In this document: positions 2,029-36,392 of the stretch, one piece after another
Layout of the letters: each line of letters begins with the position of its first letter
How positions within the stretch are numbered: position 1 is the stretch's first letter
Made by a program: the position numbers and the translations under genes
The notes under the pieces: generated by a model
What the model was told of the DNA's origin: nothing
Seen by the model: the letters and a program-made list of their open reading frames with translations, nothing else
Databases searched by the model: none
NCBI GenBank assembly: GCA_036307185.1
Contig: JAXJYC010000020.1
Location: forward strand, 6,284-70,283
Direction: 5' to 3'
Length of the DNA: 64,000 nucleotides
Origin: Lachnospiraceae bacterium
GTDB lineage: Bacteria; Bacillota; Clostridia; Lachnospirales; Lachnospiraceae

Positions 2029-3594
2029 ATGGTAAAGTTTGATGGAAGAATCCTGCAGTTCGGATTTGGTGCAGTGGGAAAGAGCTTTTATGAAAAACTT
2101 AAATACGAAGTGGACTATGATGAATATAAATACTTTGTTTTGACAAAGGAACCAGAAGAATTTAAGGCGTATATAAATTTGGGAGGAATTGCCCCAAACT
2201 TTATAACTAGAGAAGTTAATAAGGAAAATTACGCAGAGGTATTTGGTGACATTCTTGGCAGTGGAGATTTGCTTATAGACTTTGCAGATACAGTGGGCAC
2301 AAGGGATATAATAGAATGGTGCGCGAACCATGATGTAATGTACGTAAATACAGGAGAGGCCGATTGGCCATATCAATGGTATTGTATCTTTGAAGAAAAT
2401 GAGAAAAAGTCCAAGATGAAAGCGGATTTTACTAATATTAAGCATCCAATAGTTCTTCAGCATGGTAATAATCCAGGCCTTGTTTCACATTTTGTAAAGG
2501 CGGGACTTGAGTATATTGTGGAAAACCAGTTTAAACCAAGTAAATTAGGTGGAATCTTTAAGAGAAATAAGAAGGTAATTAAGGAAGATATAAGGGAGAA
2601 TAGTCGAAGTATGCTTGCTTATAATGATTTAAAAAATCTTCTTAATAAAAATAAATATAACGAATTAGCTATGAAGCTTGGTCTTAAAATGATTCATGTC
2701 AATGACATAGACTTGCAAAAGGTTAAGGAACCATATGTAGATAAGAAATTATACAATACATGGTGTGTAGAAACCTTTATATACGAGATTCTTAGCGAGA
2801 CAGCGTTTAATATAGGAACCCACGAGAAGCTAGAATTTGGTCGAGAGTTTATCCTTAAGGATATGGAAAAGGGTAATTTGAAACTGACTGATATGGCTGT
2901 AAATGTAAAGTGTAAAACTATTTACCCTGGTGGTTGCTTTGATGGTTATGTTGTGCCCCATGAGGAAACTATAACCATAGCCAAGGGGCTTGAGGTAGTA
3001 GAAATGCCAAAAGAAGATGAGGGAGAGCAAAGGGGAAAAGTAATATATCGACCTACAGTTATGTTTGTGTATCAGCCATGTGAGTATGCAGTGAAATACT
3101 TAGATAGTGCCAAGGTAAATGAATACCCCAATGTAGACCCTGCAAAGCCACTAGACTGTGAAGATGTAAATGGAAAATCTATAGTTCATGGCTACGAGTA
3201 CCCGGCTACATGGGAGATTGTGTACAGGGAAAATATAGAAAGTGGAACAGAATATGTAGGCGTTTTACTAATTGGAGATAGCTTTGATCCTGTATGGGTA
3301 GGAAATAGAGTGGAAATACCATTTTTATATAAGGGTAGCAAGGATAGCTATTGGCAGACACCGACTATTACACCAGTGTCTATGTCGGCGTTATCAGCGG
3401 TGGTATGGATGATTAATAATAGGGATAAAGGCGGCATCTATTTTCCAGATGATATAATGGATTATAAGAGCATAATTAAGCTGGCAGAGAAATATATTTC
3501 CAAGACAATATACAAGACATTTTCAAAAGAAGAGGTCGAAGAAGAGTTGGTTATAAATATTGAAAACCTCCAGTTTGAACACACTTTACAGTAG
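2029..3594 (+). CDS. hss: Homospermidine synthase (saccharopine-dehydrogenase-like NAD enzyme)
   Basis: 521 aa. Collinear by eye with bacterial HSS: GFGAVGK Rossmann loop, HGNNPGLVSHFVK (HSS GANPGMVSWFVK), NTWCVETF (NTWSVEGF), VIYRPTVMFVYQPCEYAV (AVYRPTCHYAYHPCNDAV). Starts 5 nt after the upstream stop. Confidence 0.8.
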   Translation: MVKFDGRILQFGFGAVGKSFYEKLKYEVDYDEYKYFVLTKEPEEFKAYINLGGIAPNFITREVNKENYAEVFGDILGSGDLLIDFADTVGTRDIIEWCANHDVMYVNTGEADWPYQWYCIFEENEKKSKMKADFTNIKHPIVLQHGNNPGLVSHFVKAGLEYIVENQFKPSKLGGIFKRNKKVIKEDIRENSRSMLAYNDLKNLLNKNKYNELAMKLGLKMIHVNDIDLQKVKEPYVDKKLYNTWCVETFIYEILSETAFNIGTHEKLEFGREFILKDMEKGNLKLTDMAVNVKCKTIYPGGCFDGYVVPHEETITIAKGLEVVEMPKEDEGEQRGKVIYRPTVMFVYQPCEYAVKYLDSAKVNEYPNVDPAKPLDCEDVNGKSIVHGYEYPATWEIVYRENIESGTEYVGVLLIGDSFDPVWVGNRVEIPFLYKGSKDSYWQTPTITPVSMSALSAVVWMINNRDKGGIYFPDDIMDYKSIIKLAEKYISKTIYKTFSKEEVEEELVINIENLQFEHTLQ

Positions 3595-3649
3595 CTGTAA
3601 AGTATACTATACTAATGAAATGAACTGACAAAGAAGGGGACAAAGGATT

Positions 3650-5800
3650 ATGAAAAAATTTAAGAAAATATTGCTTTGGCTTATGGTTTTTCTCGTCATG
3701 TACTTTATTAACTTTAATAATTGTACAGAGGAAGGGTGCAACCCTATAGATTATGCCCGTATAACAGATGTTGAGTATAGGGCAGAGGTTGTAGATGAGC
3801 CAGGAGGTCAAGGTAAAATAATTGTCACAGAGAGATTAACCTATGATGTACATGCGGCATTTAAGAGTAATACATTCTGGGAATTGTGGAGAGACCTTTG
3901 TGAAATCGAAACAGATGGAACAAAGAACACATATAAAGTACTTTCTGTTAAGCAGATTTTAGAAGATGGAACAGAGATTGAGTACGAAGAGAGTCCAGTC
4001 TTATATTGGGAAGATGAGGATTATGTAAATACTAATCATAGATTAGGACCAGGAAAATGGTATCATAGCCCAGGTCCATACAATGAAGATACTAGAGATT
4101 ATGAATGTGTATTCTTCTATATAGATGGAGTATATAGAGAAGAGATGGTATTTGAAATACAGTATGAAATGTACAATGCAGCTCTTCGTTATGGCGACTG
4201 CTCAGACCTTTACATATCAATGTTTTCGGAGGATGCAGTTCATGATTTAGAGTCATTTAGAGCGGAGATTCTCTTCCCAGACGAATTAATGCCATCACCT
4301 GGAAATTATACATATACAACATATGGTACTGATGCACATAGCTTCCCAGTTGAGGAATCTACAACTGCTAATCCTGGATACCATACATTTATCATAGATC
4401 TTGATGAGGACGAGTTATCATTTAGTCCATACAATGAATATATCGAGTTTGATTTGGTATCATATGGTGAAGATAAGCATATATTTACAGAATATGCAGG
4501 CTGGAATTATTACTATAATGATGTAGCGTTGGAAGAGATTCTATATGAGCAAAGAGAATATGCCGAACTTCCAGAGAAGTATAAGGCGCCAAAGGCAGCA
4601 GTATTTGTTATATTCACTGTGTTGGCTGGATTAGTTGCATTCTGGGTATATTATAAAAAGTATAAGGTATATAGTAAGCATACTTTCTATAAGCCAGTTA
4701 TGGAGTACGAATATTATAGAGATATACCAAGTGACTTAGACCCTAAGTTTGCAAAGGCATTGGTATTCTGTAAGCATAAGGAAAATAAAGATGATTCGGA
4801 TGTATATTCGGCACTTATGCTTAGCTTGGTTAGAAAAGGTTATATAGATATTAAAGAAGATAGTAATAAAGAGGCACATATAATTATTAACAAATGTCCT
4901 TATAAAGAAGCACAACCAGCTATTGATCCGACAGAAAGTGGACAGAGACAGTTTGTAGGTGGGTATTCAGTTACTGTTGATATTTCATCAGATACTAATT
5001 CAAATAAACCGGAAGATACTACAGGTGGATTTAACTTCCAGGGAAGACAGTTTGTTGAGGAATTAACAGCTAGTGAAAAGAATTTCTTTAATATGCTTGT
5101 ACATCATGCTAAAGATAATTATATATCTATGAAAGAATTTAAGCAGGCAATCGTTTCTGATTATCAGAGAACTGATTCATTCCTTAGAGTTATGGATAGT
5201 ATTGTTGTCAGTGAAGGTATAGAGAAGGGCTATTTCCAAAAGTCAAATTATAAGCAGGTTAGAGATTCATTTGCTACAACTGCTGGATTTTTAAAGATTT
5301 TAGGTTATTTCTTCTTAATAGTTGTTAACTGTATTTCGTTTACTTCACGAATGGATTTTGTATATGGTGGTTATACAATATTCGGATTAACTTGTATAAT
5401 TGGCGCAAAATACCTAAAGAAGGTAGGACAAAAGCTTATATTACTTACACAGTTTGGTGAGGATGAGTATGCTAAGTGGCGCGGTTTATATAATTTCTTA
5501 AATAGCAGCACACTTATGAATGAAAGAACATATATAGAATTACCATTATGGGAGAAATATTTGGTATATGCAACAGCGTTTGGTATTTCAGATAAGGTAA
5601 CAAAGGCAATTAATATTAGATGTCCAGAACATACTACTAGCGGAATGTTAAGTAATAATTATTACAGAACAGGAAGAATACGTATATCAAGTAGAGGTAT
5701 TGGTCACTCAGTGAGAACAGGTTCATCTATAGCACGCGGAGGAGGCGGCGGCTACGGCGGCGGCGGACGAGGCGGCGGTGGTGGCGGTGGCGGACACTAA
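3650..5800 (+). CDS. DUF2207-type membrane protein with a glycine-rich C-terminal tail
   Basis: 716 aa. N-terminal TM/signal, large exposed domain, central and C-terminal TM helices, tail GGGGGYGGGGRGGGGGGGGH. LemA neighbour, which is the usual DUF2207 genomic context. Confidence 0.65.
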   Translation: MKKFKKILLWLMVFLVMYFINFNNCTEEGCNPIDYARITDVEYRAEVVDEPGGQGKIIVTERLTYDVHAAFKSNTFWELWRDLCEIETDGTKNTYKVLSVKQILEDGTEIEYEESPVLYWEDEDYVNTNHRLGPGKWYHSPGPYNEDTRDYECVFFYIDGVYREEMVFEIQYEMYNAALRYGDCSDLYISMFSEDAVHDLESFRAEILFPDELMPSPGNYTYTTYGTDAHSFPVEESTTANPGYHTFIIDLDEDELSFSPYNEYIEFDLVSYGEDKHIFTEYAGWNYYYNDVALEEILYEQREYAELPEKYKAPKAAVFVIFTVLAGLVAFWVYYKKYKVYSKHTFYKPVMEYEYYRDIPSDLDPKFAKALVFCKHKENKDDSDVYSALMLSLVRKGYIDIKEDSNKEAHIIINKCPYKEAQPAIDPTESGQRQFVGGYSVTVDISSDTNSNKPEDTTGGFNFQGRQFVEELTASEKNFFNMLVHHAKDNYISMKEFKQAIVSDYQRTDSFLRVMDSIVVSEGIEKGYFQKSNYKQVRDSFATTAGFLKILGYFFLIVVNCISFTSRMDFVYGGYTIFGLTCIIGAKYLKKVGQKLILLTQFGEDEYAKWRGLYNFLNSSTLMNERTYIELPLWEKYLVYATAFGISDKVTKAINIRCPEHTTSGMLSNNYYRTGRIRISSRGIGHSVRTGSSIARGGGGGYGGGGRGGGGGGGGH
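5738..5794 (+). repeat. (GGN)n coding repeat specifying the poly-Gly tail of the DUF2207 protein
   Basis: gga gga ggc ggc ggc tac ggc ggc ggc gga cga ggc ggc ggt ggt ggc ggt ggc gga read directly. A GC-rich island in AT-rich DNA. Confidence 0.9.
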
Positions 5801-15950: not shown

Positions 15951-17522
15951 TTGGTGGGAAAAAGAAAAAAACAAAAGATTACATTATTTATAATGATGAT
16001 TATTTTATCTATTGCTTATATGGGCTGGAGAATTTTTGTGACAACGCCTTTTGATGTAGGAGGCGCATCCATAGTTTTGGCGACAGTCTTGCTTTTGGTA
16101 GAGTTTGTAAATATTACCGTTAGTTATGGACATTTGGCTTTTACGGGTGAAGGTAAGGGAATGCCAAGTGTACGATTGGTTAGTGAAGGTAAGCATACAT
16201 ATGTCACATTTAATGAAGGAAAAGTAGGGTCAATTCCAAATGGTTTGGAAGGCTTGGTAAATCAGTATAAGGATTGTCTAGTTAATTCAAAAATATATTG
16301 GCTTAGAATTATATGTAGATTTGGGTATATTATTATTCCAGTTATAGCAAGTATATTTGGTTTGGTTATTTTTGATACTAAATTTGCGTATATGATATAC
16401 GTATGGGCAGCCTTTTACTTTATTTTCACATTAGTAGTAAAAGGGATATCTAATGGTTATAGAAATATTCGAGTGAATAATTTTTATGATACAGGATTAC
16501 TTGGAAATACACTTGTACCAGTAGTTTTGGAAAAGCTAAGACTTAAGAAGAGTAGTAGAATATCAAAAAAACATAGATGGGGATATATTGTGCCTAATGT
16601 GTTGCTACTTGTTTTATCAATTGTAGCAGTAGTTATGTGTCTTATTAGAGCTGATAAAGCTATGACTAGCACTCAATTAGTTACAATAAAAAATATTGGT
16701 TTATATTATATAGTTATATTAATTTGGCTTATTCATAATGTGTACGTTCTTGTAATCACAATGTTTTTTTTATTTGGAAGAAAGAGAGAACGACAGTTAG
16801 AACGTCATGAGATAGCTGTTGATGCATTAGTTAAGAGTGATGATGTGTTCTTTGAGGGAACAACAATTGACCTAACAGAAGGTGGAATTAGTATTAAGAC
16901 AGGTTTTCCAGAGTATATCCATGATGATGATGTGGTAGAAATTATATGTAAAGCACCAGATAAGGATGTGTCTGTTAGATTTAAGGCAAAGGTGGTCTAT
17001 TCGACCAACTATGGTGAGGAATATAAGTATGCTTTTTGTATAGTGGATATAGATGAGGAAAATCAAAAAGCATATAAAGATATAATGTATAATAGAAAGC
17101 CATCATATAGAAAGATACAATGGGTAGATGCAAGTATTTTAGGGGAAATATTTACTATTATCAAAAAGAGGAAAAAGAAGAGAACTAGAAATGTTAGAAG
17201 ATTAGCAAGGCTTGCACTGTATAAGGAATTAAAAACAACAACAAATAGAGATGTTTTATTGTATAACTTTAGCTATGAATTTATGTTGCTTGGACATAAG
17301 AAAAAGCAAAAAATAGACAGAGAGATTGAGGTTATATTTGAAGATGGTCTGGTGGTAAAGGGTAGCCGTGAGTATGAGAAACTATCATTCCCTGATACAG
17401 ACAGAGTTGTAGTGCTATATCAAGTAACGAATATAGAAGAGTTTATTAAGAATAAAAATTTAAAACCATTGCTAAGCAAATGGTCCGAAGAATATAAGAG
17501 TAATATTTCAGAAGATAAGTAA
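15951..17522 (+). CDS. Polytopic membrane protein with C-terminal PilZ domain; cellulose-synthase-like scaffold without a GT-A core
   Basis: 523 aa. TTG start after aaggagg. N terminus YMGWRIFVTTP...LLLVEF resembles the Y-x-x-WR-x-x-x-T entry of BcsA-type synthases. KKHRWG is a possible QxxRW remnant. PilZ motifs: RKRERQLER (RxxxR), 21 residues, then DLTEGG (DxSxxG-type). Confidence 0.65.
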   Translation: MVGKRKKQKITLFIMMIILSIAYMGWRIFVTTPFDVGGASIVLATVLLLVEFVNITVSYGHLAFTGEGKGMPSVRLVSEGKHTYVTFNEGKVGSIPNGLEGLVNQYKDCLVNSKIYWLRIICRFGYIIIPVIASIFGLVIFDTKFAYMIYVWAAFYFIFTLVVKGISNGYRNIRVNNFYDTGLLGNTLVPVVLEKLRLKKSSRISKKHRWGYIVPNVLLLVLSIVAVVMCLIRADKAMTSTQLVTIKNIGLYYIVILIWLIHNVYVLVITMFFLFGRKRERQLERHEIAVDALVKSDDVFFEGTTIDLTEGGISIKTGFPEYIHDDDVVEIICKAPDKDVSVRFKAKVVYSTNYGEEYKYAFCIVDIDEENQKAYKDIMYNRKPSYRKIQWVDASILGEIFTIIKKRKKKRTRNVRRLARLALYKELKTTTNRDVLLYNFSYEFMLLGHKKKQKIDREIEVIFEDGLVVKGSREYEKLSFPDTDRVVVLYQVTNIEEFIKNKNLKPLLSKWSEEYKSNISEDK

Positions 17523-20958: not shown

Positions 20959-21126
20959 ATGGCAGATTTGATTGTATTAGGAATTGTGTTGTTGCTAGTT
21001 TTTGCAGCGTCATTATATATATATAAGCAAAAGAAAAAAGGCGTGAAGTGTATAGGGTGCTCGTCAGCAGGCGCTTGCTCCGGGAAATGTAGCTGTGGAT
21101 GTGGCAACGTTGATGATAGAAGTTAG
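20959..21126 (+). CDS. FeoB-associated Cys-rich small membrane protein (not in the ORF track)
   Basis: My translation: MADLIVLGIVLLLVFAASLYIYKQKKKGVKCIGCSSAGACSGKCSCGCGNVDDRS (55 aa). RBS aaaggag. One TM helix plus a Cys-rich tail, as in the small proteins commonly found after feoB in Firmicutes. Confidence 0.7.
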   Translation: MADLIVLGIVLLLVFAASLYIYKQKKKGVKCIGCSSAGACSGKCSCGCGNVDDRS

Positions 21127-21196
21127 CAAAAACATTCTGATAAGGATTGCACTGCGGCGTGTTGCCTCAACAACATCTACCGCTCCGCCGCAGTCA

Positions 21197-21225
21197 AAGA
21201 ATCTCGCGAGCGAGATTCTTTTTTT
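21197..21225 (+). terminator. Intrinsic terminator of the feo operon
   Basis: AAGAATCTCGcgagCGAGATTCTT followed by TTTTT. Confidence 0.85.
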
Positions 21226-21246
21226 GTGCAATAAACTAACTTGGCA

Positions 21247-21625
21247 GACGAAAAAGCCTACCTGATACTGTAAAAGCAAGCTAGGTGGGTAGGTAGGAAA
21301 GAAGCAAAAGCCTACTGGATGTTAGAAAAGTAAGCTGGGTGGGTAGGTAGGAAAGAAGCAAAAGCCTACTGGATGTTAGAAAAGTAAGCTGGGTGGGTAG
21401 GTAGGAAAGATACGAAAACCCACCTAAAGTTGGAAAATTAAGTTAGGTGGGCAAAGAAGAAATAAGGGAAATCCTACTTGACGACAGAAAAACAAGTTGG
21501 GTAGGAAAAAGAACTGAAAAACTACGGCCTACTGAAAACTGAAAAAGTAAGCTGGGTAGGAATGAAGAAGAAAAATTATTGTCCACCAGATGTTGAAAAA
21601 GGAGTTAAGTGGGTAAAAAGAATGT
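21247..21625. repeat. Seven tandem ~54-bp units, each a stem-loop (CCTAC/CCACC arm, A-rich loop, GTAGG/GGTGG arm)
   Basis: 21301-21354 is identical to 21355-21408. 21247-21300 differs from these at 10 of 54 positions. Units 4-7 are degenerate but keep complementary arms. No ORF of 60 aa or more covers 21280-21693. Confidence 0.9.
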
Positions 21626-21784
21626 TTAGAAGATTGAATAAAGAGTGAATAGATAAAATGCTCAATGTAATACAGAATTTCGCAAACATAATACTATCCT
21701 ATCGATAAAAATATTGTAAATTTATTAATGTATGTTGTAATTCTAAGAAGCTGTATTAAAAGTATAACATCGTACAATGGCAAA

Positions 21785-21813
21785 TTGAATATGCAAAAAC
21801 TATGAGATATAAT
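21785..21813 (+). promoter_or_regulatory. Promoter of the amylase gene
   Basis: TTGAAT, 17 nt, TATAAT, read directly. Confidence 0.6.
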
Positions 21814-21889: not shown

Positions 21890-24295
21890 ATGAGAAAAAG
21901 ATTAGCGTCTTTGACTGCTATAGTTGTACTTGCATGTTCGATATTTACAAGTAATAGTGCAATGACTACCTTCAGTAAGTCTAAGCAGATTACGACAACA
22001 TCTAATAAGTTAGTAAGTGACGAAAATGACGTAGAAGTGAGTAATGCAAACAACGCAGAAGTTGGCAACGCATCTGCATCTGTAGAGGGCACAGAGCTAG
22101 ATAAGTCAGCAGCAAACAATGTGAATGTAAACGGCACCATGATGCAGTATTTTGAGTGGAATTTGCCTGATAATGGAAGTTTGTGGAATCAGATTGCAGA
22201 CCAGGCGGATGAATTAGCTGATATGGGTATTACAGCGCTTTGGTTGCCACCAGCATATAAGGGGGGGCACTCGGGTGATGTTGGTTATGGTGTGTATGAT
22301 TTATATGATTTAGGAGAGTTTAATCAGAAGGGTACTGTTCGTACGAAGTATGGAACTAAGGCTCAGTATTTAAATGCGATTAATAAACTCCATGCTAATG
22401 GTATTCATGCCTATGCTGATATTGTTTTAAATCACAAGGGCAATGCAGATGGAACAGAGAATGTCAATGCTAGAGAAGTAGATGGTGGAAATAGAAATAA
22501 TGTATATGGAGATTTAAAAAATGTAAAGGTGTGGACAGTTTTTAATTTCCCAGGACGTGGCAATACATATTCATCATTTAAATGGAATTATACTCATTTT
22601 GATGCGGTTGATTATGATGCTAATACAAATCAGAACAAGATATATTTGTTAGATGGCAAATCATGGGATTCGAAAGTAGATAATGAAAATGGAAACTATG
22701 ATTATCTTATGTATGCTGATCTAGATTTTGATAATGCTGAGGTTGTAAATGAGGTTAAGAGCTGGGGAAAATGGTATGTTGATACAGCTAAATTAGATGG
22801 ATTTAGATTAGATGCAGTTAAGCATATTAAGTATTCGTTCTTCAAGGATTGGCTTACATATTTAAGAAGTGCAACCGGCAAAGAGCTCTTTACAGTAGGT
22901 GAATTTTATTCAAATGATTTAGGAAAACTACAGGATTACATAAGAGAGACGCAGAGAACAATGTCATTATTTGATATGCCACTTCATAATCATATGCAAG
23001 AGGCATCAAAGAGTAATGGACAATATGATATGAGTAAGATTCTTAATGGAACATTGGTAAGTGCGGATCCAGTATTAGCAGTTACATTCGTTGAAAATCA
23101 TGACACACAGCCAGGACAGTCTGATTATTCATATGTACTTGATTGGTTTAAACCACTTGCGTATACACTTATTCTTACAAGAGAAGGTGGATATCCATGT
23201 GTGTTCTATGGTGATTACTATGGCTTGCAGCAGAAACAAAATAATTCTGGTAGCGCTCAAAAGTATGAGATTGAAAAGCTTATGAAGGCTAGAACTGCTT
23301 GTGCATATGGAGCACAGCATGATTATTTCGATCATGGTGATATAGTAGGTTGGACAAGAGAGGGCGATAGCGCTCATGCGAATTCAGGTCTTGCATCGAT
23401 TATTACAGATGGCCCAGGTGGAAGTAAGACAATGTATGTAGGTAAACAGCATGCAGGAGAGACTTGGTATGATATAACAGGTCATGTTGGCGAGACAGTG
23501 ACAATCGGTAGCGATGGATGTGCTGTATTCAAGGTAAATGGTGGTTCGAATTCAGTATATGTTTCTAGCAAGATTACAGTACCAGGTGCAAATACACAGG
23601 GTAATAATTCAGTTACAATTTATTATAAGACAGATTGGGCGACACCATACGCGCACTATTGTGTAGGTGGTGGATCATGGACAGCAGCACCAGGTGTAAA
23701 GATGACAAAGCTTTCAGATGGTTACTATAAGATAACAGTTCCTATGGGTGGAGCGTCAGATATTAAGATGTGTTTCAATGATGGTAATGATACATGGGAT
23801 AACAATGGCGGTAACGATTATTCCTTTATGTCAGGAAAATATACTGTGAACAATGGATCGGTTTCAAGTGGAGCTCCAGCAGGAATTGTCGATCCAGATG
23901 ATAGTGGAAATGGAAGTGGAACAGGAAGTGGATCAGGAAGCGGATCAGGAAGCGGAAGTGGTTCGGGAAATAATGGTTCACAAAATGGTGAGGAAAGTAC
24001 AAGTGCTATAGAGGAGTCAACAGAGGAAGAAAGTAGCTCTGAAACAGAGACAGTAACTGATGCTGTAGGTGAAAATGAAGAAGAAACAACAAAAATTGAT
24101 GCCTCGTCAGAAGACAAAAATGAAAGTAGTATCGGTTCTAAAGATGATAACGGCAAGGATGATAATAAAAATGTATCGGAAAATGATAGTTTAGTACAAT
24201 GCGCGTTTGTTTATCTAAAAGTTCTCCTAGCGAAAATTTATGCGAAAGGCAAATTTCTTATATTGATAATCTTGGCTTTAAAAAATTATAATTAG
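21890..24295 (+). CDS. Secreted GH13 alpha-amylase with C-terminal starch-binding module (CBM25/26-like), Gly-Ser linker and acidic tail
   Basis: 801 aa. Signal peptide. MMQYFEWNLP...ALWLPPAYKG, GFRLDAVKHI, VGEF, FVENHDTQPG (Bacillus licheniformis-type amylase regions). NSVTIYYKTDWATPYAHY...WDNNGGNDY starch-binding-like module. (GS)n linker. Confidence 0.9.
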   Translation: MRKRLASLTAIVVLACSIFTSNSAMTTFSKSKQITTTSNKLVSDENDVEVSNANNAEVGNASASVEGTELDKSAANNVNVNGTMMQYFEWNLPDNGSLWNQIADQADELADMGITALWLPPAYKGGHSGDVGYGVYDLYDLGEFNQKGTVRTKYGTKAQYLNAINKLHANGIHAYADIVLNHKGNADGTENVNAREVDGGNRNNVYGDLKNVKVWTVFNFPGRGNTYSSFKWNYTHFDAVDYDANTNQNKIYLLDGKSWDSKVDNENGNYDYLMYADLDFDNAEVVNEVKSWGKWYVDTAKLDGFRLDAVKHIKYSFFKDWLTYLRSATGKELFTVGEFYSNDLGKLQDYIRETQRTMSLFDMPLHNHMQEASKSNGQYDMSKILNGTLVSADPVLAVTFVENHDTQPGQSDYSYVLDWFKPLAYTLILTREGGYPCVFYGDYYGLQQKQNNSGSAQKYEIEKLMKARTACAYGAQHDYFDHGDIVGWTREGDSAHANSGLASIITDGPGGSKTMYVGKQHAGETWYDITGHVGETVTIGSDGCAVFKVNGGSNSVYVSSKITVPGANTQGNNSVTIYYKTDWATPYAHYCVGGGSWTAAPGVKMTKLSDGYYKITVPMGGASDIKMCFNDGNDTWDNNGGNDYSFMSGKYTVNNGSVSSGAPAGIVDPDDSGNGSGTGSGSGSGSGSGSGSGNNGSQNGEESTSAIEESTEEESSSETETVTDAVGENEEETTKIDASSEDKNESSIGSKDDNGKDDNKNVSENDSLVQCAFVYLKVLLAKIYAKGKFLILIILALKNYN

Positions 24296-24306
24296 GTTGC
24301 TTAAAT

Positions 24307-24339
24307 AAAAGTAGGATAGTTAATAAGCTATCCTACTTT
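24307..24339 (+). terminator. Intrinsic terminator after the amylase gene
   Basis: AAAAGTAGGATAGttaataagCTATCCTACTTTT: 13-bp stem. Confidence 0.85.
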
Positions 24340-24465
24340 TATCGTATAGGAAGGTTCTATTTGTGAATTTCCTATATGAAAAAATTATAGAATGCGAATA
24401 TTATGGGGTACGCATTTTATAAACGGGATTTAGCAAAAAATTATAATGTTAAGGAGGATTTTTCC

Positions 24466-24691
24466 ATGAGAAATCGAAAAAAGCATGGCTTGTTAAAAGG
24501 CTTTGCAGTAGCAATGGGCGCAATGTAACGGAAATGCAATGTATAAGATTGTTATCCCAACAGACATCGTAGGACTTATCTTTACAAATGGTTCAACACA
24601 GACAGTTGATATAACAACAAATCTTAAGGATGGTGCAGTATTTAGCGTGTCAGGAAATTCTGGTAGCAAGTATAATGTGTCAGTTAAGTAA
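24466..24691 (+). pseudogene. Possible frameshifted small lipoprotein gene
   Basis: After aaggagg: MRNRKKHGLLKGFAVAMGAM then a stop. The next frame continues QCNGNAMYKIVIPTDIVGLIFTNGSTQTVDITTNLKDGAVFSVSGNSGSKYNVSVK. Removing one A near 24523-24526 would give a signal peptide ending ..AMGA-C. Confidence 0.3.
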
Positions 24692-24719
24692 AAAGCTATA
24701 TAAGTATCTAAAAAATTGG

Positions 24720-24770
24720 GGCGCCCTCCGCAAGGAAGGCGCCCCAAGTGGCTTTTTATCTTAGTTTAAT
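24720..24770. terminator. Bidirectional GC-rich terminator
   Basis: aaaaaTTGGGGCGCCctccgcaaggaaGGCGCCCCAAgtggcttttt: 10-bp GC-rich stem. Confidence 0.8.
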
Positions 24771-24799
24771 ATTATCAGTTTCATATGACTTAGCATTCT

Positions 24800-26608
24800 T
24801 TACAAAGGTAGGTCTTTCTTGGTAAAACGAATGGAACCAAGTATATATCCAAGTAGGCCGACTACTCCAAGTATGATAAATTTCCAAATGAAAGCATTTG
24901 TTCCATCAATGATAGCAATAACATCAAATAAGGAAATGATTGTCGCATAATTGAAGTTGTTCAAAGCATCGAGACGAACGACAGATGGAATAACAGGGCT
25001 GCCGAATAGTCCTAGCATGGCGGCAACAAGTGCGAAAATAGAAAGGCCACCGCCTATTGCCATAGAACGCTTGCTGCGGTCAAACACGCAAGAAGTAAAG
25101 AAGCAAAGTCCGGAAAGTGCTAAAAGAACAAGGAACGCACCTACATTTAACAAAATCAGATTTGTATAGGTCAATTCTACATCTTCTGTCACAAGCGATA
25201 GGCATACACAACCTGTTACTGTTGTTAATGAGAACATGGCAAGCAGAGAACCGATGAGATACAATCCTTGCGTAAATACTACTGTGCTTCTCTTAGTTGA
25301 GGTGGAAAGTACATACGCCATAGAGCCGCTGTCTACCTGGCCAGATATTAGGCTGTTTGATGTCATAATCATATATATGATAGGTAGTAAAAGACCTGCA
25401 AGCTTATAGAAGATGGAGCCAACAATCAAGGTGTAAAGATCTGCCTGACCGATTTCTTCTAGAGCATCGGAAACTTCCACTGGTAAAGTGGAAAGGAAAC
25501 TAGTAGAGATATCCTTAGCAAGACTTTCTTTTTTGTCTGCAATTGTACTAAGATAGACATCTTCATTTGCAAAATCACCTGCATTATACTGTTCATCGAG
25601 CAAACCAAGTTCATAGTTCAGTCTACCTTGGTAAGTTACAATAGCAGTTTGAGCCATATGCTTGATGGAATCATAGGTATAACCGAAAGAATTATATTTT
25701 TCTTCGGTAACGCCATAGTTAGAGAGCGCATCTATAAGAGTTTCTGTTGCTTCAGTTTTAGTTATATTTCCAGCAAGGAAGATCGCTGCGCCTTCTTTGG
25801 CTCTTGCTTGGCAGTAAGCATTTCTCTCCTCAGAGCTAAGAAAGTCAACAATGTCACCGCTGCTGATATGAGAGATTAAGGACATAAAATCATAATTGTC
25901 GGGTATGTCCTCATCATTTTCAACATAAAAATCATCAAAGGTTCCATTTGGGTTCAAAGTATACATAACACTGCCGAGAATTTCTAGAGCCTCAGAAGAG
26001 TTCTCTGCATATCCCTCGTCTTTTGCTTTTTTAGCAAGATAATTCTGCAATTCTTCACAGGCAGAGGAATAAGCAACTGTAATAGCATTTTCTTGAGTCG
26101 CAGGAGACTGCTTCTGCCAGACTTCTACTGCAGATAAGTATTCATTTGTAGCGGAGAAGGTTTCTTGTTGAGGAATTTTTGCCATCCATTCATTTACGAC
26201 TGCTGCATAAGCTTTGCCAGCATCTGTTTTCATTTCTGGAACAGAATCTTGCCATTTTTCTATTGCTGTAGTATATATAGCTAAATCAGAAAAATCGGTT
26301 TTGTTCGGCATTTGTGAACACCATACAAGATAAGAGAGGGTGTCTTTTGCATTTTCTGAGAAAATGGAATCGAATTTTATAAGTCCGTCTTCGGCAGTTG
26401 TATAATAGGACAGTGCACGTTTTTCCATTTGAGATTCAATCTCTTTTGTAATGATGGTATCCTGAATAGAATCTTTGAATTCACCTATATTACCGTTGCC
26501 TGAAATTAGCATGACACAGGCAAGCATAAAGCAGACGGCGAAGGTAATAATGCCCCACATGGTACCGTTTGCTTTGCAGGATTGTTTGAATAAAGCTTTG
26601 CTAAACAT
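24800..26608 (-). CDS. ABC transporter permease with a large extracytoplasmic domain
   Basis: 602 aa. One N-terminal TM, a soluble loop of about 370 aa, and 5 C-terminal TM helices. Immediately downstream of two ABC ATPase genes. Confidence 0.65.
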   Translation of the reverse strand: MFSKALFKQSCKANGTMWGIITFAVCFMLACVMLISGNGNIGEFKDSIQDTIITKEIESQMEKRALSYYTTAEDGLIKFDSIFSENAKDTLSYLVWCSQMPNKTDFSDLAIYTTAIEKWQDSVPEMKTDAGKAYAAVVNEWMAKIPQQETFSATNEYLSAVEVWQKQSPATQENAITVAYSSACEELQNYLAKKAKDEGYAENSSEALEILGSVMYTLNPNGTFDDFYVENDEDIPDNYDFMSLISHISSGDIVDFLSSEERNAYCQARAKEGAAIFLAGNITKTEATETLIDALSNYGVTEEKYNSFGYTYDSIKHMAQTAIVTYQGRLNYELGLLDEQYNAGDFANEDVYLSTIADKKESLAKDISTSFLSTLPVEVSDALEEIGQADLYTLIVGSIFYKLAGLLLPIIYMIMTSNSLISGQVDSGSMAYVLSTSTKRSTVVFTQGLYLIGSLLAMFSLTTVTGCVCLSLVTEDVELTYTNLILLNVGAFLVLLALSGLCFFTSCVFDRSKRSMAIGGGLSIFALVAAMLGLFGSPVIPSVVRLDALNNFNYATIISLFDVIAIIDGTNAFIWKFIILGVVGLLGYILGSIRFTKKDLPL

Positions 26609-33321: not shown

Positions 33322-35010
33322 ATGTTAAATTTTAAGAGATATAGAAGAAATCCAGTGGTAAATTACCCAGAGAGAGAATGGCCAAACAAGGAAATCGAAA
33401 AGGCTCCTATCTGGTGTTCAGTAGACTTAAGAGATGGTAATCAGGCACTTATCGAGCCAATGGTAGTTGAGGAAAAAATTGAGTTCTTTAACTTACTTGT
33501 TAAGCTTGGTTTTAAGGAGATTGAGGTTGGTTTCCCAGCTGCATCACAGATAGAGTTTGATTTCTTAAGACAGCTTGTAGATAGAAAGCTTATTCCAGAT
33601 GATGTAAAGATTCAGGTACTTGTACAGTGTAGAGAGCACCTTATCAAGAGAACATTTGAAGCATTAGAGGGAATTAAGCAGGCAGTAGTTCATATTTATA
33701 ATTCTACATCTACACTCCAGAGAGATGTTGTATTTAACAAGAATAGAGAAGAAATCAAGCAGATCGCTATCGAGGGAACTCGTATGGTTAAGGAATATGT
33801 GAAGGATTTCAAGGGTAAGATATTCCTTGAGTACTCACCAGAGAGCTTTACAGGAACAGAGCTTGATTATGCGTTAGAAGTATGTACTGCAGTTCAGAAG
33901 GAGTGGGGAGCTACAAAGGAAAATCCTATTATCTTCAACCTTCCAGCTACTGTAGAGATGAATACACCAAATGTATACGCAGATCAGATTGAGTGGATGG
34001 ATAAGCATTTTGAAGATAGAGAGAGCATTATCTTAAGTGTACACCCACATAACGATAGAGGAACAGGCGTGGCAGCAGCAGAGCTTGCACTTTTAGCAGG
34101 TGCTGACAGAGTAGAGGGAACACTTTTTGGAAATGGTGAGAGAACAGGTAACGTAGACGTAACAACTATCGCTTACAATATGTTCTCACAGGGAATTAAT
34201 CCAGAACTTAACCTTGAAAATGTAAATGAATTAATCGAAGTATATGAAAGATGCTGTAAGATGCCTGTAAGCATGAGACATCCATATGCTGGTAAGCTTG
34301 TATTCACAGCATTTTCAGGTTCACATCAGGATGCTATCAACAAGGGTATCACAGCTATGAAGGAAAGAGAGCAGGAGCATTGGGAGGTTCCATATCTTCC
34401 AATTGACCCAAGTGATGTAGGTCGTGATTACGAGCCAATCGTAAGAATCAATAGCCAGTCAGGTAAGGGTGGCGTTGCCTTCGTTATGGATACATATTTT
34501 GGTTACAAGCTTCCAAAGGGAATGCATAAGGAGTTTGCAGATGTAATCCAGAAGATTGCAGAAGCACAGGGTGAAGTATCGCCAGATACAATTATGGATA
34601 AGTTCCGTGAGGAGTACATAACATATAAGACAGATAAGGAATACCCATTTGAGTTCACATCATGTAAGATTTCAGATGTGGATGACAACGATGAGGCAGG
34701 AGATACACTCGCTAAGCTTACATTCAAGTATAAGGGCGAGGAGAAGTATGTTGAGATGGTTGGTAATGGACCAATCGATGCTGTTAAGAAGGCAATCGAG
34801 GAGACAACAGGCGTTAAGTTTAAGCTTGCAGATTACTCACAGCATGCACTTTCAGATGGTTCGCAGGCCATGGCGGCAGCATACTTTAACTGCATCGATT
34901 TAGAGACAGGAAAGACATCTTATGGTGTTGGACAGAGTGCGAATATTACAAGAGCTTCTATTAGAGCTGTGTTCTCGGCACTCAATAGATTGGATAGAAT
35001 AAGTAAATAG
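33322..35010 (+). CDS. leuA: 2-isopropylmalate synthase (long LeuA type)
   Basis: 562 aa. WCSVDLRDGNQAL, HPHNDRGTGVA and GNGERTGN motifs. C-terminal LeuA dimerisation/regulatory domain. Confidence 0.9.
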   Translation: MLNFKRYRRNPVVNYPEREWPNKEIEKAPIWCSVDLRDGNQALIEPMVVEEKIEFFNLLVKLGFKEIEVGFPAASQIEFDFLRQLVDRKLIPDDVKIQVLVQCREHLIKRTFEALEGIKQAVVHIYNSTSTLQRDVVFNKNREEIKQIAIEGTRMVKEYVKDFKGKIFLEYSPESFTGTELDYALEVCTAVQKEWGATKENPIIFNLPATVEMNTPNVYADQIEWMDKHFEDRESIILSVHPHNDRGTGVAAAELALLAGADRVEGTLFGNGERTGNVDVTTIAYNMFSQGINPELNLENVNELIEVYERCCKMPVSMRHPYAGKLVFTAFSGSHQDAINKGITAMKEREQEHWEVPYLPIDPSDVGRDYEPIVRINSQSGKGGVAFVMDTYFGYKLPKGMHKEFADVIQKIAEAQGEVSPDTIMDKFREEYITYKTDKEYPFEFTSCKISDVDDNDEAGDTLAKLTFKYKGEEKYVEMVGNGPIDAVKKAIEETTGVKFKLADYSQHALSDGSQAMAAAYFNCIDLETGKTSYGVGQSANITRASIRAVFSALNRLDRISK

Positions 35011-35094
35011 GACCTTATATATTGTTATGCTATGTTTTTTACATGCTTCAGATACTTGATTTTCTAAATACTTTGGGTAAGGTTGTGTGTGTAT

Positions 35095-35160
35095 GACGTG
35101 ACCGGCTCATACGCCCCGTCCATGGGGCGATTCGCCTTTTCCTAACGTCCTGTTAGGAAA
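35095..35160. other. GC-rich structured intergenic segment with two adjacent hairpins
   Basis: CGCCCCgtccatGGGGCG (35112-35129) and TTTCCTAACgtcctGTTAGGAAA (35138-35160). Confidence 0.5.
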
Positions 35161-35366
35161 TCACTGATATAGAACAAAGGATTAAGAAAATCTATATATC
35201 TTTCGCTACCGTAAAAATTCATAGATAAAATACTCATAAGGTCTATATATGTATTGAAATTATTTATTGAAGTCTAGAAGAAGTGGCTTATGTTAAGTGG
35301 TTTGAAATAAGGAAATTAGCTTAGAGAAGAAAAAATATTAGCTACGAAAATTTGTAGGAGGGAATT

Positions 35367-36392
35367 ATGGAAAAGAAAACAATTTTACTTGCTGGTGGTG
35401 CGGGTTATATTGCTAGCCACACTGCTATCGAGCTTATGGAGGCGGGTTATAATGTTATAAGTGCGGACTGCTACTACAATAGTAAGCCTGAGGTTTTTAA
35501 TAGAATCGAGAAGATTACTGGGGTTAGAGTTAAGAATTATGACATCGATGTATGTGATGTAGATGCTTTAGATAAGGTGTTTGCTGAGAATAGCATCGAT
35601 GCAGTAATTCACTTTGCGGGTTATAAGGCGGTTGGAGAGTCTGTGGCGAAGCCTATGATGTATTATGAGAATAATATGGATTCTACATTTAGTCTTGTGA
35701 AGGTTATGAAGAAGTATGGATGCCACAATATGGTATTTAGTTCTTCGGCTACTGTGTACGGTGTGCCTGAGAGTGTGCCTCTTGTAGAGACTATGCAGAC
35801 TGGTCCTTGTACAAATCCATATGGGTGGACTAAGCTTATGAACGAGCAGATTCTTATGGATGCAGCTAATGCAGATAAGGATATGTCAGTTGTATTGCTT
35901 AGATATTTTAATCCAGTAGGAGCACATAAGTCAGGACTTATTGGTGAAGATCCAACAGGAATACCAAACAACCTTATGCCATTTATTTCACAGGTGGCAG
36001 TAGGCAAGAGAGAATGCTTAAATGTATTCGGTGATGATTACAATACACCAGATGGTACAGGTGTACGTGATTATATCCATGTAGTAGATTTGGCAAAGGC
36101 TCATGTTAAGGCTATCGATTATGCTTTAGAGAATAAGGGTGCTGAGGTGTTTAATATCGGTACTGGAGTTGGCTATAGCGTACTTGACATGGTTAAGGCT
36201 TTTGAGAAGGCAAATGATATTAAGATTCCATATGTGATCGCACCAAGAAGACCAGGTGACATAGATGAGTGTTATGCTGATAGTAGCAAGGCAGCAAAGA
36301 TGCTTGGTTGGAAGGCAGAGAAGACATTGGAAGATATGTGTCAGGATACATGGAACTGGCAGAAGAATAATCCAAATGGATATGAGGCGTAA
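35367..36392 (+). CDS. galE: UDP-glucose 4-epimerase
   Basis: 341 aa. GGAGYIASH Rossmann motif, SSSATVYG, YGWTK catalytic Y-x-x-x-K. Confidence 0.9.
   Translation: MEKKTILLAGGAGYIASHTAIELMEAGYNVISADCYYNSKPEVFNRIEKITGVRVKNYDIDVCDVDALDKVFAENSIDAVIHFAGYKAVGESVAKPMMYYENNMDSTFSLVKVMKKYGCHNMVFSSSATVYGVPESVPLVETMQTGPCTNPYGWTKLMNEQILMDAANADKDMSVVLLRYFNPVGAHKSGLIGEDPTGIPNNLMPFISQVAVGKRECLNVFGDDYNTPDGTGVRDYIHVVDLAKAHVKAIDYALENKGAEVFNIGTGVGYSVLDMVKAFEKANDIKIPYVIAPRRPGDIDECYADSSKAAKMLGWKAEKTLEDMCQDTWNWQKNNPNGYEA

Follow-up and report, generated by a model that had tools for sequence, protein, structure and literature searches.

Stem-loop elements in 5' leaders, such as those of aprE and ermC and the cryIIIA STAB-SD, set mRNA stability in Firmicutes, and the intercistronic stem-loops of the R. 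cellulolyticum cip-cel operon reportedly do the same. Here, a tandem array of seven putative hairpin units was analyzed. It lies at positions 21247-21624 of a 64,000-nucleotide stretch of Lachnospiraceae DNA (contig JAXJYC010000020.1; the whole stretch is called the window), between the feo genes and a gene for a secreted GH13 alpha-amylase. The array appears to belong to a small, previously undescribed family with 54- or 64-bp units, which is found upstream of one orthologous secreted GH13 amylase gene in uncultured gut Lachnospiraceae. The 54-bp unit is predicted to be a hairpin module, in which a G+C-rich stem of 6 bp closes an A-rich loop of ~21 nt and the tail is rich in purines, and the array may be an undescribed regulatory element. 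The reading favored here, with a probability of roughly 40%, is that the units are structure-constrained hairpin modules which would act on the + strand, as an amylase leader or as part of an upstream transcript. In this reading the array would be a gene-linked, structure-constrained intergenic tandem repeat.

In its proposed mode of working, the array would be most like the Firmicutes stem-loop leaders that set the fate of an mRNA, without being a member of that group. Both would lie in untranslated mRNA parts for abundant secreted enzymes, carbohydrate-active or other exo-enzymes, and the same principle of protection or processing is proposed. The Firmicutes elements, however, are single or few, unique and experimentally supported, whereas the arrays are made of 7-12 reiterated, putatively transcribed modules, and the window array is upstream of the proximal promoter.

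In composition, the array can be compared with the pneumococcal BOX element, with its reiterated boxB, and with the STAR element of S. aureus (PMC3532100). These are also intergenic non-coding tandem modules of ~45-60 bp that are capable of forming stem-loops, with a module number that varies between strains, and they adjoin genes whose expression the modules may influence. BOX and STAR, like the REP/BIME repeats, are dispersed between genes with many copies per genome, whereas the window unit accompanies one orthologous gene; when the window and ~1.3 Mb of related loci were searched with a hidden Markov model (HMM) and a covariance model, no additional copy was detected. The array also has no flanking module of the boxA or boxC type and no sequence similarity to these elements. 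In appearance the reiterated boxB part of BOX comes closest, without the array being a BOX member.

Type III antitoxin arrays are defined by a terminator after the array and a gene for a ToxN, CptN or TenpN endoribonuclease; the paradigm ToxI array has 36-nt units, and such systems occur in Lachnospiraceae (PMC3401426). ToxI, CptI and TenpI share with the window array the short direct repeats upstream of a gene, with each repeat a structured (here putative) RNA module. The units of the arrays described here are longer, at 54-64 nt; in the window, no + strand terminator lies between array and gene, and the gene encodes a secreted GH13 amylase with CBM25.

The array is very unlikely to belong to the described repeat-RNA systems (CRISPR, TIGR, Type III antitoxin arrays) or to be a coding repeat in decay. 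The superficial likeness to ToxI/CptI arrays before a gene, a 54-bp unit length that is divisible by 3 and a - strand frame that stays open through units 2-3 could be taken in favor of such an origin. However, as the initial annotation had stated, the array is not CRISPR: the entire 54-bp unit is reiterated without unique spacers, and units 2 and 3 are identical throughout. Among the window open reading frames (ORFs) scanned with Pfam, which represent ordinary housekeeping, transport and signalling genes, no cas, toxin or tas-like gene was found. The annotation was also correct that no ORF of at least 60 aa covers 21280-21693. All three + frames carry stops in each unit and two - frames are closed in every unit; stops in units 1, 4 and 7 interrupt the remaining - frame. 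In the relatives, the unit length of 64 bp is not divisible by 3. A protein-coding repeat was rejected on the closed frames, and the overlapping small ORFs have no Pfam match.

In L089, a contig of a related species, gene callers place ORFs of 124 aa (3471-3845, +) and 32 aa (3080-3178, +) on purine-rich arrays. These are probably spurious calls resulting from the scarcity of T-containing stop codons, because Pfam gives no credible match for the 124-aa product and a 64-bp period does not keep the reading frame.

No Rfam 15 family reaches its gathering threshold in the region, which is consistent with the earlier statement that no element with such a unit has been described. Matches up to E = 10 are far under threshold (the best for the array is RAGATH-8, 12.6 bits versus 86.7), the L089 array has no Rfam match up to E = 1, and a literature search for such arrays found no description. 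A mobile-element fragment is not evident, as blastn of the array against plasmids and phages gave no match. The array does not have the features of an intrinsic terminator array on the - strand: the conserved helix closes a ~21-nt loop, where such terminators have a G+C-rich stem with a loop of 3-8 nt before a U run, the sole terminator-like site of that strand in the array region is at the left edge (21262-21243), and the genes on both sides are on the + strand.

The array family and its amylase gene

The sequence itself, Tandem Repeats Finder (TRF), repeat finding and the unit HMM identified seven tandem units (Table 1) with start-to-start spacings of 54, 54, 54, 54, 55 and 53 bp. With seven head-to-tail units of 53-55 bp, the array belongs to the minisatellite or variable number tandem repeat (VNTR) class, a descriptive class with units of 10-100 bp. 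TRF called 21272-21410 with a period of 54, 97% matches and a score of 264. In the 64-kb window the unit HMM matched all seven units with E values from 4e-14 to 2e-08, and the next best match had E = 1.4. The core motif AAGYTRGGTRGG, with at most one mismatch, occurs 9 times in the window, where 1.65 occurrences are expected, and none of 100 shuffles reached 9; 6 of the 9 are inside the array.

Direct comparison verified the unit descriptions in the initial annotation. Units 2 and 3, which are called young here, are identical 54-mers, unit 1 differs from unit 2 at exactly 10 positions, four increasingly degenerate units follow and end at 21624, and the complementary arms quoted for each unit are present. 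The likeness to the young unit drops progressively across units 4-7. This gradient fits an array with one expanding and one decaying end, as a functionless (neutral or self-amplifying) structured minisatellite would have. According to this main rival explanation, which is considered rather unlikely, a hairpin segment was duplicated by replication slippage, and only pairing-competent units spread, because hairpins favor slippage; the array would persist or be lost with no effect on the cell.

Arrays were also found in two related species. In L089 (amylase P0004), a type A unit of 64 bp (AAAACCCACC-21 nt-GGTGGG-tail) is repeated 5.0 times and is followed by a type B unit, also of 64 bp, in 6.5 copies. 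L170 (amylase P0003) carries 6.4 copies of a 64-bp type C unit, with arms ACCGA/TCGGT or CCGAT/ATCGG, plus a terminal hairpin CCCGAG-22 nt-CTCGGG. The sense-strand purine content of all the arrays is 67-77%. Both of these arrays are directly upstream of the orthologous amylase gene, and their upstream neighbors are GH16/AsnB, not feo. The array therefore appears tied to the amylase and not to the feo-amylase spacer, because the upstream neighbors differ between species. The position between feo and amylase given in the initial annotation is correct for the window, but the upstream partner is not part of the association. That the arrays remain at one orthologous gene despite differing upstream neighbors is also a point against a functionless minisatellite.

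The amylase clade comprises window/P0001, P0002, P0003, P0004, P0005, P0008 and P0009, with mutual identity of 63-71% (P0003 versus P0004, 86%). The distribution in this clade is patchy: four of the seven lineages (L088, L171/L172, L173 and L174) have no array, and the spacers of L088, L173 and L174 are 219, 15 and 79 nt. The expectation that homologous arrays would be present in related genomes therefore holds for two species and fails for four of seven lineages. No array was detected by regular expression, HMM or TRF in 80 FeoB loci of GTDB representatives (FeoB at most 75% identical), and none was present in 80 distant metagenome amylase loci (50-64% identity) or in L175 (P0016). Scans of the genome, metagenome and viral contig collections for the exact tandem-unit pattern gave 0 matches each. 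Within these scanned collections the 54-bp form appears limited to the window species.

A putative conserved helix

The units of L089 and L170 escape the window-unit HMM, and the kinship of the unit types rests on pairwise tests and on register. In local alignment, window unit 4 (W4) matches the type A units A2 and A3 of L089 with z = 7-8 against shuffles, with AAAACCCACC, AAAGT, AGGTGGG and AAAGA in common. Types A and C match with z = 2.4 (p = 0.035) and are best aligned via the tail GCACGAGGAA; C7 matches type B with z = 3.5 (p = 0.009).

The helix was then compared in a gapless alignment of 27 distinct units and 46 columns, with one N added in the loops of the unit-7 variants and C7 so that the register holds. 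In columns 5-12/32-39, 78% of the cells are paired, versus 26-41% when the 3' arm is slid by 1-3 columns, and none of 500 shuffles gives as much pairing. All 27 units have A-U at pair 9-35, and all but one have C-G at pair 6-38. Other pairs vary, as at 8-36 (CG 10, GC 10, UA 3, UG 3) and 10-34 (CG 16, GC 6, UA 1, UG 1, unpaired 3). A 6-bp helix closing a ~21-nt A-rich loop thus holds its register, with arms of CCUAC/GUAGG, CCCACC/GGUGGG, CCGA/UCGG or CCCGAG/CUCGGG. Arms that differ between arrays and are still complementary in register speak against the minisatellite explanation.

Divergence was also lower in the stems than elsewhere. When window units 4-7 were compared with the young unit, 8 of 48 stem positions differ and 58 of 135 other positions differ (p = 0.0014), so that old units, which no longer expand, keep their stems 2.6-fold better than their loops and tails. 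Similarly, W4 and L089 A2 differ at 0 of 12 stem positions and at 18 of 34 positions elsewhere, although neutral intergenic DNA should be randomized between species whose amylases are only 66% identical. Both results are contrary to a functionless minisatellite. These data suggest some constraint on the arms to remain complementary. Most W and A units are more stable than shuffles (z of about -1.8 to -5.4), but W7 (z = 0.1) and A4 (z = -0.9) are not; by the folding model, some members of the family have a hairpin of only marginal thermodynamic stability.

Other features of the unit sequence were also considered. A G-quadruplex GGGTGGGTAGGTAGG, as read from the sequence, is possible in units 1-3 only and is not kept by the other units. 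Mimicry of a Shine-Dalgarno or anti-Shine-Dalgarno sequence by the arms was rejected because the L170 arms do not keep it. An inner alternative helix AGCCTACT/AGTAAGCT, which is better on the - strand, was rejected as non-conserved, since no window units other than 2, 3 and 6 contain it.

Copy number among strains

The window species is not among the GTDB representatives, and its best FeoB match there is 75% identical. Strain contigs were chosen through amylases in the 90%-identity cluster of P0001, which is 97% identical to the window amylase. The window has 7 units, L085 has 8 and L083 has 9, and both of these contigs span the feo-amylase spacer without a gap; the L086 scaffold spans the spacer with a run of N within the array. 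The array is a VNTR because its copy number differs between strains, with the changes among the young 5' units. Freely varying copy number had been listed in the initial annotation as a sign against the element, and the copy number does vary. The gains and losses are confined to near-identical young 5' units of the class of unit 2, which is in line with a minisatellite, while unit 1 is unchanged in every strain compared and units 4-7 are retained across strains with few single-nucleotide polymorphisms (SNPs).

The substitutions among strains were examined for their effect on pairing. A variant young unit in the strains has GCCCAC for GCCTAC, which replaces a U.G pair by C-G. Four of five stem SNPs swap U.G or G.U with C-G or G-C on the + strand, and the T to C changes of unit 7 in other strains convert U.G and G.U to C-G and G-C. 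The old units differ by 0.9-2.3% between strains, and third codon positions differ by 3.5-4%. Between strains, conservation of the old units is neither above nor below that of neighboring non-coding DNA, as a minisatellite would predict, but the comparison is uninformative at 1-4% divergence.

The short-read metagenome contigs L001 (end, 3136), L082 (start) and L087 (start) stop within the array. This indicates that the identical units break assemblies and that the array will be under-represented in short-read metagenome-assembled genomes. Pattern scans may miss the array in short-read data.

Predicted transcription and features of the locus

The strand of the units was judged from folding and base composition. 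Six of the seven window units fold better on the + than on the - strand, and the non-Watson-Crick stem cells are mostly G.U on the + strand, including W1-3, W2/3/5/6 and A1; in A1, two C to U changes keep the pairing. The purine bias matches the amylase sense strand. A + strand transcript running into the amylase is favored because no terminator lies between, no sigma-70-like site separates array and ATG in L089 or L170, and a promoter-like site is present at the 5' edge of all three arrays. The site at 21241-21269 is a possible start of the array transcript in the window, with similar + sites in L170 (593-621) and L089 (3061-3089), each located at the first unit or shortly ahead of it. The feo terminator is upstream of the array and outside it, and the L089 and L170 arrays likewise follow a terminator, which belongs to another upstream gene. 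No + strand terminator-like site was found between array and amylase in the window, L089 or L170.

In the favored reading of hairpin modules on the + strand, the units would be transcribed in the amylase sense, with the start at unit 1 or shortly ahead of it. With no terminator before the gene, the RNA would read through into the amylase message and form either a long leader of many hairpins or an upstream transcript. The hairpins might shield the message from 5'-end-dependent decay or processing, or alternatively they might be repeated binding sites for an RNA-binding regulator; either action would tune amylase output, and slippage among the young 5' units would alter the number of modules. 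A broader version of the reading, tentative at best, is a new class of reiterated cis-acting RNA module that recruits an RNA-binding regulator or blocks RNases and sets amylase output, with slippage between strains as a tuning knob.

Several observations weigh against a structure-constrained leader. The folding of the array as a whole is as significant on one strand as on the other (z = -3.2 and -4.0), and type C units, and likewise A4, carry C.A cells that are G.U wobbles on the - strand. The promoter calls behind the predicted transcript are weak consensus matches in A+T-rich DNA. A conserved proximal promoter-like site is located downstream of the array and serves array-less relatives too, and the array cannot therefore be essential for amylase transcription. 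As for the helix, it was derived from the same sequences that were used to score the pairing, the alignment holds about 3-5 independent arm changes since units within an array are copies of each other, and RNAalifold returns no consensus helix on the 27-unit alignment. Type B and C1-C6 units are no more stable than shuffles, and in unit 4 a G to T SNP in L085-L087 breaks a pair without compensation. The weak folding, the missing consensus helix, the uncompensated SNP and the four array-less lineages with the same promoter are also in favor of a functionless minisatellite. The initial claim of selection on pairing beyond slippage is therefore upheld in part: the register kept across species and the less diverged stems support it, and the RNAalifold result and the unit 4 SNP do not.

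The array could also act at the DNA level, as binding sites for a DNA-binding regulator or nucleoid protein or as a tunable spacer or insulator, with copy number setting promoter strength. This is unlikely. The window array is ~160 bp upstream of a promoter conserved in array-less relatives, which is the territory of an upstream element and not of a proximal 5' untranslated region; the unit lengths of 54 and 64 bp are near 5 and 6 helical turns, and symmetric half-site changes are also expected from a co-evolving dimeric regulator. A dimeric DNA-binding protein is, however, less likely because the arm centers are ~28 bp (2.7 turns) apart, which is unusual for a dimeric operator, because two arm types occur per genome (in L089, and as CCTAC and CCCAC arms in the window), and because general 10-11-bp A-tract phasing is absent. 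Two arm types in one genome imply that sequence identity matters less than complementarity. Intrinsic curvature by phased A-tracts was rejected, as AA periodicity appears only at harmonics of the unit length. In L089 and L170, moreover, the array directly adjoins the ribosome-binding region, and nothing like a sigma-70 site intervenes.

An independent regulatory RNA is less probable still. It might be a + strand multi-hairpin sponge or small RNA that binds Hfq, CsrA or some other A/GGA-binding protein. Alternatively, it might be a pyrimidine-rich RNA of the - strand, with its start at the promoter-like site at 21720-21691 and its end near the bidirectional feo terminator. CsrB and RsmZ also have many reiterated hairpins with purine-rich, GGA-containing single-stranded segments, and A-rich loops and GGA-containing purine tails are present in every unit type here. 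CsrB and RsmZ, however, are stand-alone genes with their own terminator and with GGA in short loops, whereas the array has A-rich loops of ~21 nt and no terminator after it, which counts against a stand-alone + strand small RNA. GGA is mostly outside the loops, and its placement is inconsistent between unit types. On the - strand, a short U run follows each hairpin, and a promoter-like site conserved in three species faces into the array; but this motif is also present in array-less relatives and has no equivalent flanking the L170 array. The better folding of the window units on the + strand and the lack of further copies in the window and the related loci also speak against an independent RNA.

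If functional, the hairpin array would be specific to one gene and tunable through its copy number, and it would control a secreted amylase of an abundant but uncultured group of gut starch degraders. Such a regulatory design would be absent from Rfam and distinct from dispersed repeats, CRISPR and Type III antitoxin arrays, and the unit number would be a concrete handle on strain differences in starch use. If not functional, it would be a clean hairpin-driven minisatellite whose stems outlast what neutral decay predicts. The array is a practical marker, as it breaks short-read assemblies and tells strains apart.

The features of the locus are collected in Table 1. Pfam verified the gene context in the initial annotation, with FeoA, FeoB and a FeoB-associated Cys-rich protein upstream and the GH13 amylase with CBM25 downstream.

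Table 1 Features of the array locus in the window, with minimum free energies (MFE) of the units on the + strand unless noted.
Feature	Position	Strand	Remarks
Intrinsic terminator of the feoA-feoB-feoB-associated operon	21196-21228	+	12-bp perfect inverted repeat (21196-21221), 2-nt loop, T run
Weak sigma-70-like site TTGGCA-17-GATACT	21241-21269	+	9/12 consensus matches; -10 within the unit 1 loop
Unit 1	21247-21300	+	Arms CCTACC (21257-21262) and GGTGGG (21284-21289), alternative perfect partner GGTAGG further 3'; MFE -13.5 kcal/mol, z = -3.2 (- strand: -8.1, z = -1.2)
Unit 2, young	21301-21354	+	Arms CCTACT (21311-21316) and GGTGGG (21338-21343); same sequence as unit 3
Unit 3, young	21355-21408	+	Same sequence as unit 2
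Unit 4	21409-21462	+	Arms CCCACCTAA and TTAGGTGGG; hairpin core in common with L089 type A; MFE -14.2 kcal/mol, z = -5.4
Unit 5	21463-21517	+	Arms TCCTACTTGAC and GTTGGGTAGGA; pair 8-36 is U-A; MFE -12.9 kcal/mol, z = -4.9 (- strand: -5.8, z = -1.4)
Unit 6	21518-21570	+	Arms CCTACT and GGGTAGG; MFE -8.5 kcal/mol, z = -2.4
Unit 7, most degenerate	21571-21624	+	Arms (T)CCAC and GTGG(G); loop shorter by 1 nt; MFE -5.3 kcal/mol, z = 0.1
Conserved motif TACTATCCTATCGA	21692-21705		Between array and amylase promoter; right-hand limit of the segment absent from array-less relatives
Proximal amylase promoter-like site TTGAAT-17-TATAAT	21785-21813	+	10/12 matches; downstream of the array
GH13 alpha-amylase with CBM25	21890-24295	+	Pfam; gene accompanied by the array family

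The proximal amylase promoter-like site is kept in the array-less L088 and L171. These two contigs also carry the motif TACTATCCTATCGA, which is thus present in three species (window, L088 at ~1673-1686 and L171 at ~92-105), ~80 nt upstream of the amylase -35. On the - strand the motif reads as a promoter-like TTTACA-18-TAGTAT, and it could be an operator or a divergent promoter.

A second large amylase (~1020-1093 aa, CBM26) directly follows the first in most relatives, as seen when window positions 24296-24800 were compared with L083 (6577-9858), L084, L089 (6742-10002), L171 and L173. The window has no second amylase, and L085-L087 keep only a CBM26 remnant of 148-189 aa, which suggests that the second amylase was recently deleted. 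The small FeoB-associated gene (20959-21126) differs from L085 (3014-3181) and L086 (2169-2336) by 11% in nucleotides and 29% at third positions, and the flanking genes and spacers of those strains differ by only 1-4%. This suggests a local recombination patch.

In L170, the asnB terminator region (491-544) is a 27-bp direct repeat in two copies, and its stem CCCCTAC/GTAGGGG is like the CCTAC/GTAGG arms. Such a terminator repeat may be a seed for hairpin-unit arrays. In L089, a c-di-GMP-I riboswitch (RF01051, 80.6 bits, 332-415, +) is located upstream of the GH16 gene that precedes the array. The corresponding interval of the window, from AsnB to the amylase, contains a PilZ-domain protein (15951-17522). 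Farther along the window, a full-length TwoAYGGAY RNA (RF01731, 114 bits versus a gathering score of 43) was found at 35043-35208 on the - strand, between a leuA-like gene (33322-35010) and an epimerase/dehydratase gene (35367-36392).

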